A DNA stretch of 64,000 bases, taken from positions 25,606,001-25,670,000 of the forward strand of contig CM022670.1 of the NCBI GenBank assembly GCA_012295275.1. Reading direction: 5' to 3'. Position numbers and translations under genes: made by a program. Shown piece by piece: positions 18,801 to 59,982 of this stretch. Every line of letters starts with the position of its first letter. Position 1 is the stretch's first letter. The DNA comes from Chrysomallon squamiferum. Lineage: Eukaryota > Animalia > Mollusca. Below the pieces are notes generated by a model that made no database searches, was not told the DNA's origin, and saw only the letters and a list, made by a program, of their open reading frames with translations.

Positions 18801-19874
18801 GACACACGGGACTAGTCAGCAGATCTGATTACAAGATTATGGCTGCTTGCATTCTTTTCTGGATCTTTTCGCCAACCGCCGGGGATAGAGATTTTCCTTG
18901 ATTTATTATTATTATTATTCTGTGGTTGTTGTTTTTATAGTTACTAATATTATTGTTGTTATTAGTGTTGTTAATGTTATAATTATTGTTGTTATTATTA
19001 CTGTTATTGTTGTTGTTGTTGTTGTTGTTGTTGTATTTATGTTGCTGTTGATGTTGTTGTATTATTGACAAATCCTAAGTTAACAAAATGATGCAGCGCA
19101 ACTTCTTTAGAGAGTGAAACATTCCTACACCCTCTTTTATGTCTGATAACAGTTATTTTTATTTTACGTTAAGTACGTATGAAACATGTTAATAACATAA
19201 CAAACCTTGACAACCATCAAACTTTGACATCAAAATAAACAATAATAAATGAAATAAATAAATAAGCAAACAAATGGAGCTTCAACGGGTGAAATCACTG
19301 ATACATTTATGCATTCTTCTTATTCGACAATAAACAACACTTTATCGACTTGTTTATCCATTTATCCCCGTCTGAATTTTTAAAACATGCACTTCTGCTT
19401 CATATGTTTGTACCCCACTCTGTTTTTTTTTTTTTTTTTTAACCTTGCATGTTTCATCTCGAGGCGATATAAAGTTCATGCCATTGATAAACTGTCCCTC
19501 CTGTTGTTAAAAACGTCCCCCCTGTTGTTAAAAACGTTCGCGGGTTCTCAGGGTTAACGTACGCACGGACTAACGATGCCACGTTTTGATCACTGAAGAA
19601 CGACATGGATCGGAAACCCTGCTGCGCAAAAAGCCTGTTCGGACTTCAGTAAAAGGTCATAATACCATTTAAACATTTTAGAATCATCTACGAAGAAGAT
19701 AAACAATAAAATGATAATCCTTTATTCTTCTCGTTTTCTAAAATGTTAATCCTTCGTATAGGGACACAGTGAGTAATAAAACAGTATTTGCTTTATAAGA
19801 GTGAGTTTTCATCTTTGTTCATCAGACTCATTATTCAGAAGTTGATTATGATCAGATCGTCATATACAGCTAAA

Positions 19875-22552
19875 ATGAAGGTAAGATTCTGAAAAAATAG
19901 AATTGTTTCTTTCTTTCTTTCTTTATCCCTCTGTCTTTTTATTTTCTTGATCTTCTTTTTCTTCTTCATCTTATTATTGTTATTATTATGAACTAATGAT
20001 TTCAATAAGTTATGTTTGTGTGCATATTATTTCCTTAATAATGATCAGCCTACTCAAAATAATAAATATCATTTAACAATCATATCGCCTTCAAAAATCG
20101 TTTTCTTACCTTTTTTATATTTTTTAGTTTGTTTTGTCTTTATATGAATAATACTTCTTTGCTGGATATCTTTATTTTATATATGTCAGTAACTTAAATA
20201 AAAGATATATACAATTGTATTAATAATGCGTTTGTTGAAAAAAACTATCTATATCAAAAATACGACTTTAATATGAATTTATATGAATAACCAATTTCTG
20301 AAAACATATCATTAATATATCTATGTATATATACCATTTATATCAATACAAGTCTTTAGCATATACCGTTTATATCAGAAATCTATAAATGCTATGATAC
20401 ATAGTTTTGTAAAAATCATTATAATTTCCATTCTTTATGTACTAGTAGAGTCACTCCTAAAGAAAGAAAAATACATTTTACGGTTATTATTAACTACTGT
20501 ATATTTTAAATACATATGTGTTTTAAAATATTTATATCATTATATATAGTTGTTAATGGTTTCAATAGGTCGCCTTTTAGCAGGTAATTTTGTTTCACAA
20601 GTGACATATGTACGTATTCTGAAAGGGCACAATAATATGTTTCAATAAATTTGTGTACAAACATCTAAATATTGTCTTTGAATTTCACTTAAAAAACACA
20701 CTAACTTTTGTTCCAACAGTATTTGACTGAAATGTTGATTAGTAGATAACTGTATGCATTACGTACAGTAAGCTTCGTGGAGACGGCGACTCATACTGAT
20801 AGGCACATAGGTGGATACAAATATATATGAATAATATAAAAATATAAAGATATCTTGACAGATAATCAACGAGTTATCAGCAACTAACAATAATAAAATA
20901 ATATTAAGGAAAACTGAATTTGAAAATAAATAATAAATAAATAAACAGTAAGACGCGGGTGAATTAACAATAGATTGACTGTAAAGAAGGACAGAAAAGG
21001 TACGCATATATAAACAAATAAGAAAGAAAGAATGAAAGTACACACACACACACACAAACACACACACACATACACACACACACATACACACACACACACA
21101 CACACACACACACACACACACATATATATATATAAAAACAAACATTTTCTTTTGTTTTTTCAGACTGCCAAACTCGTATCAGTTTTACTATGCATGGTTT
21201 TCTGCGTGTCTCATGCGGCTCCTCCGGGACATCAGTTTCCCAATTTTCCTTTCATAGACGGCTTCCACAACCACCAAAACATACAAACACCACCAGCGAA
21301 TTACCAGAACCTCGGCGGTTTCTACAACCACTTCTATGGTGGAGGCTTTCCTTTTCCTCCATACGCACCCCACCCCACTCATCCCCACATACCACCCGTA
21401 CAGAATTTATGTGTACCTCCACCAGATCCTTCCGCAATCTTCAACGTGACGACAGTTAACATCGGATACCCAACGTATGTGATCAGTATAGTTTTGTTTG
21501 TATAACTACTGTGTTATGTTATTAAAATAAAATAGTTCTTAATGTCCTTCAAATTTCAATTATTACTACTATTATTATTATTATTGTTATTATTATTATT
21601 ATTATCGTTTTCATTACTACTACTACTACTACTACTGAAACTATTATCATCATCATCATTATTGTTATTATTATTATTATTATGTATATATTTACTTACT
21701 TACTTACTTATTAGTTTATTAATTAATTAATTAATTTACTGTATTTTTCATTTTCTTTCTTTATTTATTTATATTTGTTTTTACAGTTTGTTGATCGCTG
21801 CTGAGAGAAATAGAAGACTCGATCTTGCCTTTTTCAGTCAAATCACAACCACGCCAATTCCAAGAACTTACGTTGTGTAAGTCAGTTTAATGTACTGGAA
21901 TAGTCAGAATCATATTAGTGCTCTTATAAAACAGTTATTCAAGTAATTTTTGAATGTTTAACCTCCTATTTTGTCATACAGTCATTTGATAACAATTTCA
22001 CATTTTCTGTAGCGACAATACTTTAAGCTGCCCAGCCACAATGGGTCGTTTGTCCGGGTTCAGAAAATACAATGGCAGATGCTGGATTCTTCAAGACCTT
22101 CACGATATCGACATTGCAAGATGCACGTAAGTTACATCTAATTATACCGTTTAAAATGTATTTTAAAAACCTGGCAATTTGATTCACTATTATAATAATA
22201 TATGTTTAATTTTACAATTTAATAAATATAACATTATTACAAATGTCTTATTCTGAAAGGAATTATTTCACGATTAAACTGATCTCACTTACGTTTTACT
22301 TTACACTCTCTATACATCTAAATGCTAATATATCATCTATTTTTTTTTTCTTTCCTTTCACCCAGCCAACCTTATTGCCAGGGTTGTAGCCAGAGCAATA
22401 CAAGATACAGTCGTCACATGTGCTGGGACCACTATGAGAGAATCCAGGTGTGGGCGTTCTGTGAGGCAAACAACAGTCCCCTTGGCCAGATCGCCAGAGA
22501 AGAAATCTTTGTTCCAAAATACTGTGCGTGCAAGAAAGTTCAGTGTTACTAA
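19875..22552 (+). CDS. Cluster gene A: secreted Spaetzle-like cystine-knot protein with Pro/His/Phe/Gly-rich N-terminus, ~235 aa
   Basis: Exons 19875-19880 (MK), 21164-21474, 21787-21876, 22013-22126, 22366-22552; intron phases 0,2,2,2. Signal MKTAKLVSVLLCMVFCVSHA. C-terminus SCPATMGRLSGFRKYNGRCWILQDLHDIDIARCTQPYCQGCSQSNTRYSRHMCWDHYERIQVWAFCEANNSPLGQIAREEIFVPKYCACKKVQCY. Confidence 0.88.
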
Positions 22553-59057: not shown

Positions 59058-59982
59058 GACTCTGATTCTTATTTCTGTCCTCCCTCCAAAGCTAAAGAGA
59101 AGAATCCAAGGACATGCACTTTGTTTCATTTTATACACCTGTAAATTGAAATCGTAAATGTTTTATTACCTCATTAATACAGCCAGTAATGATTTCGATT
59201 GAGAGATCATCTGGCTTTGGACGCTTAAGTTTTCGGATTAAATTTTCTCATCCTTGCAATGAATAATAAACAGTACGACGTTAAGTGAAGTAAAAATCCG
59301 ATAAAAGGTTTGGTCTTTATCTTTTGGCTCACCCGTTGTTTTTCTTACGTTGTTCACACTTCATGACCTTTATTTTGATAAAGATGGGCTCGAGCAGTGT
59401 TTCAATGAAACAGAGATTTACATTGTGCCCTCAAAATGGTAATCACATACTCAATTACCCATATGATGTTCTGAAATAACAGAATGAAATAAATGTGTCA
59501 GATTTATTCAGCATGACCGTTGATGTTCACTAATCTCGACGTCGGGATGTTTAATACGAAATATATTTGAATATTGTTAATAGTAATAGAAATTTAATCG
59601 ACTTCTTCTTCAGTCTATTGTTTACTGTTAATTCGCATTTAAATTGTTATTGATTTGAAAAGGAAATTTTCACACAGTTAAGTACGTTATCTCAATTTGA
59701 TTTTTTAATGTATTATTAAGTAGAAATGAAACTACAGGAGCCAGATGTCATCAACCGAACGGAAACAGTAATGAAGAATAGCATATAGATCGTTATTAAT
59801 GTCGATGAATCTTTTATTTTTACATACTTTGTATACGCACACGCACTCATATCTATACATACCCATGCAGACACATAACTATGCATGCACATACCAGCAT
59901 ATGTAAATATACAAGCATACATTCATACATACATACATACATGCATACATACATATAAAACATAGGTACGTACATACATATA

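Follow-up and report, generated by a model that had tools for sequence, protein, structure and literature searches.

Are secreted proteins that join a cystine knot to fast-changing, often repetitive tails signals or building material? The question is raised by a 64,000-nucleotide (nt) stretch of the Chrysomallon squamiferum genome (GenBank assembly GCA_012295275.1, contig CM022670.1, positions 25,606,001 to 25,670,000, forward strand), here called the window, in whose coordinates all positions are given. It holds a cluster of seven genes, five bearing the predicted knot (A–E) and two without it (F and G). The reading that we favour, at roughly even chances, is that the A–G family comprises secreted matrix proteins, with a disulfide-rich assembly module, for organic extracellular material. 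Going by its predicted fold, the lidded ten-cysteine knot itself marks a branch of the NGF/Spaetzle/coagulogen superfamily that is gastropod-wide and, it appears, undescribed. The seven genes are as follows (lengths in amino acids, aa).

Gene A: exons 19875-19880, 21164-21474, 21787-21876, 22013-22126 and 22366-22552, plus strand; start codon at 19875; 235 aa, 11 Cys in the module.
Gene B: exons 28740-28742, 30132-30430, 31247-31348, 31858-31986 and 32307-32502, plus strand; start codon at 28740; 242 aa, 12 Cys in the module.
Gene C: exons 34971-34976, 35529-36130, 36444-36545, 37043-37171 and 37366-37558, plus strand; start codon at 34971; 343 aa, 11 Cys in the module.
Gene D: exons 42067-42062, 41524-40653, 40127-40023, 39569-39435 and 38851-38653, minus strand; start codon at 42067; 438 aa, 12 Cys in the module.
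Gene E: exons 52091-52096, 52534-52877, 53189-53272, 53624-53758 and 54115-54289, plus strand; start codon at 52091; 247 aa, 11 Cys in the module.
Gene F: 43860..50733, exon 1 at 43860-43865 and exon 2 from 44050, plus strand; knot-less, head-to-head with D.
Gene G: exons 59057-59052 and 57924-56479, minus strand; knot-less, an open two-exon gene of 483 aa.

Genes A–E have five exons apiece, with GT-AG borders at every intron, intron phases 0-2-2-2 and a single open frame. Their splice junctions are supported by homology alignment: all internal junctions (15/15) are gap-free against database homologues, and alternative exon-3 frames of B were ruled out by homology. The first exon measures 3-6 nt, with a TATA-like box 62-108 nt upstream. 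Exon 2 encodes a signal-like stretch, the entire variable tail, the first conserved Cys and a YP motif; exons 3-5, constant in size and phase, supply a helix-rich segment followed by the ten-Cys region (ten Cys counted from the first knot Cys onward, 5/5 proteins). Pairwise identity is 24-45% across the C-terminal ~150-165 columns. Scanned with a family hidden Markov model (HMM), the window yields exons 4 and 5 five times and not a sixth time. An earlier note, made from the letters of the window, had described this layout, these phases and the ten-Cys domain; splicing and homologue junctions bear it out, and we regard the cluster and the A–E gene models as real and, judged from sequence, well supported.

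The N termini of A–E were called signal-like by a hydropathy check rather than by a signal-peptide predictor, a 10-residue Kyte-Doolittle window reaching 2.3-3.3 within the first 35 aa (5/5). Behind them the tails diverge. That of A is Pro/Phe/Gly/His-rich and leads into the module of lid and knot; that of B is Ala/Ser-rich with a Trp cluster; C carries 9-aa GYPTNSNNH-type repeats and D 9-aa GYNTNNVGQ-type repeats; and that of E is Pro/Gly/Arg/Tyr-rich with a VSAGIP motif. The low-complexity N termini of the earlier note stand insofar as they are variable, Tyr/Asn/His/Gly/Pro-rich and set on a constant module, but tandem repeats among A–E occur in C and D only. As to the co-regulation that the earlier note proposed, a scan of the seven promoters found no outstanding shared element beyond TATA; the best 6-mer, in 4/7 promoters, is marginal (P about 0.02 corrected for 1197 k-mers). 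The first-exon sequence ATGAAG/GTA has five occurrences in the window, and A, C, F and G each begin with one.

Local duplications accompany A and B. Between them lies a tandem non-coding duplication of ~1.15 kb (25551-26674 and 26706-27882), identical at 962/1101 aligned bases and, by the family HMM, holding no family exon. B itself has a 58-bp array in intron 2 (30917-31195), a 103-bp-spaced duplication in intron 3 (31354-31531) that takes in part of the exon 3 end, and a 51-bp array in its 3' region (32574-32782).

To place the module, we searched 1.84 billion representatives with a profile built from the five last exons (E ≤ 0.001). The search returned 39 proteins, 37 of them family members; P0017 (HYR repeats) and P0031 (a repeat artefact) were dropped as unrelated. 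Species look-up covered 30/37 homologues and named a species for 26, every one a gastropod (26/26), from Gigantopelta, Haliotis (four species), Lottia, Patella, Littorina, Pomacea, Batillaria, Nucella, Babylonia, Elysia and Plakobranchus. We take the family to be old and gastropod-wide, not unique to this snail; its restriction to gastropods rests on a non-iterated profile from five short sequences. Pulmonates, Aplysia, bivalves, chitons and cephalopods are absent from the 26 named matches. Search sensitivity may account for these gaps, as may a connection with the operculum, a structure largely missing in pulmonates. Word-indexed searches returned nothing from 193 candidates with the exon-5 alignment (0/193) and only two already-known rows among 7992 candidates scored with the 35-protein alignment, both weak evidence.

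Six of the 26 named homologues bear the label 'Spaetzle domain-containing' (a UniRef automatic label) and one 'Bursicon'; the others are uncharacterised or labelled by composition. The earlier note had not recognised the locus as a described one. That holds, since we found no published description of family or locus in a limited literature search, with the accented spelling of Spaetzle and subscription papers outside its range, but the note missed the gastropod-wide family and its six auto-labelled records. The accessible part of PMC13425148, cited like all papers below from excerpts, has no mention of 'knot', 'spz' or 'neurotrophin'.

Tandem clustering looks conserved in other gastropods, with accession neighbours in Littorina (three) and Patella (two) and shared contigs in Haliotis and Gigantopelta. 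The contig that bears two of the Gigantopelta members equals in length the one that bears LRRC74B. A 30-row tree left out fragments and P0027 (fused to a G protein-coupled receptor, GPCR); its deep branches are weak, and it carries flags for long-branch joins. In it Haliotis P0039 is the partner of A (support 98/96, 41% identity) and the Gigantopelta orthologue P0008 that of E (100/99, 47% over the full length). The duplications that gave A and E are therefore old. C and D fall together with two Gigantopelta proteins (98/92), D with Gigantopelta P0006 and P0002, and B is ~50% identical to P0009 and P0002 across ~168 aa. Across paralogues and species the tails differ radically, reaching ~890 aa and often consisting of tandem repeats, with the knot Cys kept. 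In Lottia P0030 and P0033 a low-complexity stretch sits between the lid motif and the knot. P0006 (LOC121374615) has the look of an annotation fusion of two tandem paralogues, the first with an F-like start and a truncated knot and the second D-like.

For the module, the predicted fold is a cystine knot of NGF/Spaetzle/coagulogen type capped by a helical lid. An AlphaFold2 model of homologue P0002, computed from a 35-sequence alignment, gives residues 1-96 as low-confidence or disordered and a confident unit of ~165 residues (~100-270) in which three short helices are followed by long beta hairpins. The predicted local distance difference test score (pLDDT) is at least 90 at 133/270 residues, nearly all within 100-270, with lid and knot as one unit; about 65 residues N-terminal of the knot are predicted folded, mostly with pLDDT above 90. 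Disulfides are not readable from the model coordinates; the third and sixth knot Cys are missing together in 2/30 aligned rows, as expected of a pair. A model of exon 5 only was poor (pLDDT 58.6), and its fold search was meaningless.

In structure searches with this model the best matches are signalling proteins. Foldseek displays neurotrophins throughout its first 21 rows (best E 1.4e-3, probability 1.00, with no match at E ≤ 1e-3), followed by sclerostin, Spaetzle (E 0.034), coagulogen (0.23) and IL-17. VIA, over 48,161 chains, gives five rows at Z ≥ 5 and none at the tool's level of Z 8, their scores tied: NGF twice (Z 5.7, root-mean-square deviation (rmsd) 3.5-4.0, 88-94 aligned), Spaetzle (Z 5.3, rmsd 6.7, 78 aligned), IL-17A (Z 5.2, rmsd 4.4, 95 aligned) and coagulogen (Z 5.1, rmsd 4.9, 121 aligned, its residues 1-175 against model 104-263). 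Judged chiefly by their titles, VIA rows 1-15 are all cystine-knot proteins. The NGF and Spaetzle rows span the knot alone, whereas coagulogen is the only one of the top five rows to span lid and knot together; on the lid by itself VIA says little. The ESM Atlas matches P0009 residues 90-257, at 0.90-0.93, to clusters of Spaetzle (15% of the members), Noggin and NGF, and for the last exon of B Cys_knot/DAN leads below 0.9.

Sequence methods reached no curated cut-off in Pfam or in PDB sequence searches. None of the 39 profile matches attains the gathering cut-off of PF16077 (best 15.8 bits vs 27) or of IL17 (0/39), no NGF match appears in them at E ≤ 0.1, and single window exons match no relevant Pfam family (PF16077 0/10 exons). 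Neither profile, exon-5 or 35-protein, finds any PDB chain by sequence. The Spaetzle-like knot of the earlier note consequently stands as a predicted fold, through Foldseek, VIA and the Atlas, and not as Pfam membership.

On a signalling reading, A–E would be Spaetzle/neurotrophin-like ligands whose pro-regions evolve fast and whose receptors are Toll-like or Trk/p75-like; F and G would be by-products or separately recruited genes. We consider that unlikely, though the neurotrophin-led Foldseek ranking, the VIA rows for NGF, Spaetzle and IL-17A and the top Atlas clusters speak for it. Spaetzle (PF16077; Drosophila Spz, PDB 3e07) likewise has a signal-like N terminus, a variable N-terminal region and a C-terminal NGF-type knot. 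A–E differ in their ten knot-region Cys, a predicted folded lid, and the lack of a conserved junction cleavage site and of an adjacent-Cys dimer motif. An R-X-[KR]-R site is absent from the lid/knot junction in 5/5, and the 25-aa linker before the knot holds few basic residues (A 1, B 1, C 0, D 2, E 2). In Spaetzle the interchain Cys sits next to the fifth knot Cys; the corresponding adjacent-Cys motif, CCxC, occurs in 0/5 window genes and 2/30 aligned rows. Spz1, by comparison, has a natively unstructured pro-domain that is cut at the knot junction and forms a covalent dimer via a central interchain Cys (PMC9427763). Some fly Spaetzle paralogues carry extra cysteines (PMC2586362), so Cys number alone does not exclude kinship.

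Neurotrophins (NGF, NT-3, BDNF) match the knot best in structure, with Foldseek template-modelling scores by target of about 0.5-0.6, but identity is 12-18%, and the family adds four Cys, a lid and tandem-repeat tails, with no furin site before the knot in A–E. Such sites do occur in three divergent homologues, P0030 and P0033 (Lottia) and P0032 (Haliotis), 11-22 residues before the knot as in ligand precursors, which suggests descent of the family from a processed ligand. In C a furin-type site precedes the module, and furin-like proteases cleave Spz2 and Spz5 (PMC9427763). For a present-day ligand, the predicted fold of the segment that should be a pro-region, the failure to reach any Spaetzle, NGF or IL17 cut-off, and the knot-less repeat-only relatives and long tandem tails, are left unexplained or tell the other way. 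A–E look like Spaetzle/neurotrophin precursors but should not be filed as Spaetzle.

Coagulogen (PDB 1aoc), whose VIA row aligns with the model's lid and knot alike, is a knot protein used as material, and a gastropod counterpart of it can be pictured: injury would trigger clipping of the lid in stored precursors, and the knots would then polymerise to form a wound clot or barrier, F and G serving as fillers. B, D and many homologues have an Arg following the second lid helix, which would suit such clipping, but A, C and E lack it. Repeat tails are absent from coagulogen, whose activation takes place at two Arg sites flanking its lid; those two sites are not conserved here. Identity is 12%, with no sequence match to this or any other PDB chain; the VIA score lies below 8 and is tied with those of NGF, Spaetzle and IL-17, and the Foldseek E is 0.23. 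No protein clotting cascade of this kind is known in gastropods, though no search was aimed at one. We rate a wound clot as quite improbable.

Of the two knot-less genes, G is, as far as its sequence goes, a clean repeat gene, rich in Tyr (16%), Ser (12%), Pro (11%) and Lys (10%) and built of 11-aa DNYKPSGYQQH repeats, with 13 YKPS-type units by pattern count. It has the VSAGIP motif in common with E, a link that is merely suggestive (38/300 shuffles reach the score), and its N terminus shows no significant likeness to the family (31/300 shuffles reach the score). The G unit is reminiscent of the Tyr-Lys-Pro-rich decapeptide of mussel foot protein 1. Molluscan matrix and adhesive proteins (shell repetitive low-complexity domain proteins, mussel foot proteins) are likewise secreted and rich in Tyr/Lys/Pro/Gly/Asn/His tandem repeats; the likeness is one of composition, and here the repeats are joined to a growth-factor-type knot. 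Among molluscan matrix proteins, domains of a repetitive, low-complexity kind are common (PMC7142155).

F starts, like A, C and G, with the first exon ATGAAG/GTA. Its exon 2 has a signal-like start, about 95 unique codons and then a 54-bp x ~117 array (44345-50712), and its N terminus outscores 300/300 shuffles against Gigantopelta paralogue P0006; we take the 5' end to be homologous to the family. The 6.4-kb array has 96 regular and 20 irregular spacings of 116, and 12 of the irregular ones, all within the first two thirds, shift the frame. In the assembly, the signal is followed by an Arg/Gly/His-rich frame. We asked which frame renders recurrent unit variants synonymous: a minus-strand Ser/Ala/Val frame does so for 7/9, the plus-strand acidic frame for 5/9 and the plus-strand Arg/Gly/His frame for 1/9. 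No convincing start or signal was found for the minus-strand frame, so the plus-strand gene was retained. Its product may be Arg/Gly/His-rich as assembled, or acidic given a one-base indel before the array; alternatively F may be a pseudogene or the minus-strand frame the coding one. The earlier note's pair of knot-less repeat genes accordingly survives in G, open over 483 aa, and in F as a knot-less relative with family 5' architecture, but the array of F is frameshifted. An identical 17-nt word borders this array at 44293 and 50769 and occurs nowhere else on the window's plus strand.

Tails free to vary within one exon, knot-less repeat genes, a knot not set for release and a coagulogen-like module together lead us to favour a structural role. 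A ligand that had lost its knot would, we infer, have no evident reason to expand repeats. In such a role the constant module would be an assembly or anchoring unit for the fast-changing Tyr/His/Asn/Gly/Pro-rich tails. With no conserved protease site ahead of the knot, it would remain whole once secreted; it would also self-associate, the odd Cys that A, C and E have (11 in the module) being free for interchain bonds. The Tyr/His-rich tails and G would then be cross-linked, for example by quinone tanning.

Several observations weigh against a structural role. The best structural matches are signalling proteins, and the furin-type sites of P0030, P0032 and P0033 lie as in ligand precursors. The RGKR immediately N-terminal of the module in C would cut the repeats off it, and many caenogastropod and heterobranch homologues have a furin-type site upstream of a short tail. 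The N termini of A, B and E, though biased, are short (57-74 aa) and non-repetitive. Published tissue data add to this list. The repeat unit, period and SSYPQ doublet of G equal those of C. squamiferum model CsqKR_Scaf264_18.26 (an 11-aa unit in 11.82 copies, given as a table row only, with positions offset 22-24 residues from our model; PMC7142155 supplementary tables). In the excerpts of that study, which compared five tissues with cut-offs of two-fold and of FDR (false discovery rate) below 0.05, 18.26 is absent from the scale-, mantle- and oesophageal-gland-enriched lists, and its three neighbours are mantle-enriched (PMC7142155). Likewise, the region that we tentatively map through a neighbour gene to contig 587 (chunks 42-46) of the later annotation contributes no gene to the shell/sclerite proteome sheets among the matches listed; its first appearance is in sheet 22, after those sheets (PMC11871041). 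In that study the periostracum was removed and acid-insoluble fractions yielded no identifications (PMC11871041).

G's absence from the published mantle- and scale-enriched lists makes the calcified shell a less likely site than an organic structure that went unsampled or is associated with the foot (operculum, radula or jaw membrane, pedal mucus). Most of the cluster seems absent from the first C. squamiferum gene set: the excerpted low-complexity table does not contain the repeat motifs of C, D or F, and in the published order 18.26 ends its contig, the next genes being galactosyltransferases, none of which we see in the window (PMC7142155). A bolder and rather doubtful version has a growth-factor fold independently turned into a coagulogen-like block, its lidded knot polymerising or disulfide-linking tannable repeat tails into gastropod organic armour (operculum or periostracum) and shedding the knot-less fillers F and G. 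On that version, and given the apparent gap in the first gene set, the cluster may have been overlooked as a source of the insoluble hard-part matrix, for which proteomics gave no identifications. The cephalopod products among the earlier note's candidates (beak, sucker) fall away, the animal being a peltospirid gastropod.

Fast-evolving secreted repeat proteins are typical of egg coats, and the family could instead supply an egg coat, egg mass or cement from reproductive glands. Haliotis, Patella and Lottia, which are broadcast spawners without capsules, nevertheless have family members, with a likely orthologue of A; the egg case put forward in the earlier note is therefore unlikely as the ancestral role. 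Reproductive tissue lay outside the five tissues compared, which would explain G's absence from the enriched lists (PMC7142155), yet we regard a reproductive-gland product as a long shot.

The flanks lie outside the family:
9680..15870, plus strand: LRRC74B-like gene (leucine-rich repeats and EF-hand), left flank.
62490..64000, plus strand: CUB-like exons, so judged by eye, running off the window, right flank.
Both had been proposed in the earlier note and hold up. The left gene matches Gigantopelta aegis LRRC74B at 53-84% identity in 10/11 tblastn pieces, the remaining piece (35%) spanning an intron, and on the right 18.28, two genes from 18.26, is annotated 'CUB domain-containing 2' (PMC7142155). 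The neighbours 18.27-18.29 (CUB, transmembrane serine protease 9-like and uncharacterised) are mantle-enriched 2.5-3.2-fold (PMC7142155); that a serine protease adjoins the cluster could be relevant to processing or be chance. Farther left, two long coding exons at 2861-6162 (plus strand) encode an adhesion-type GPCR (7tm_2, E 2.8e-13) with a weak Somatomedin B match (E 0.004).

These results provide exact gene models for this family in a snail studied for its armour. Were the proteins ligands, they would be candidates for the endogenous ligands of gastropod Toll-like receptors, a question left open in PMC4807771. If the structural role that we favour is true, they would be a second case, after coagulogen, of a signalling fold used as material, and candidates for the little-known proteins of operculum, periostracum or mucus.

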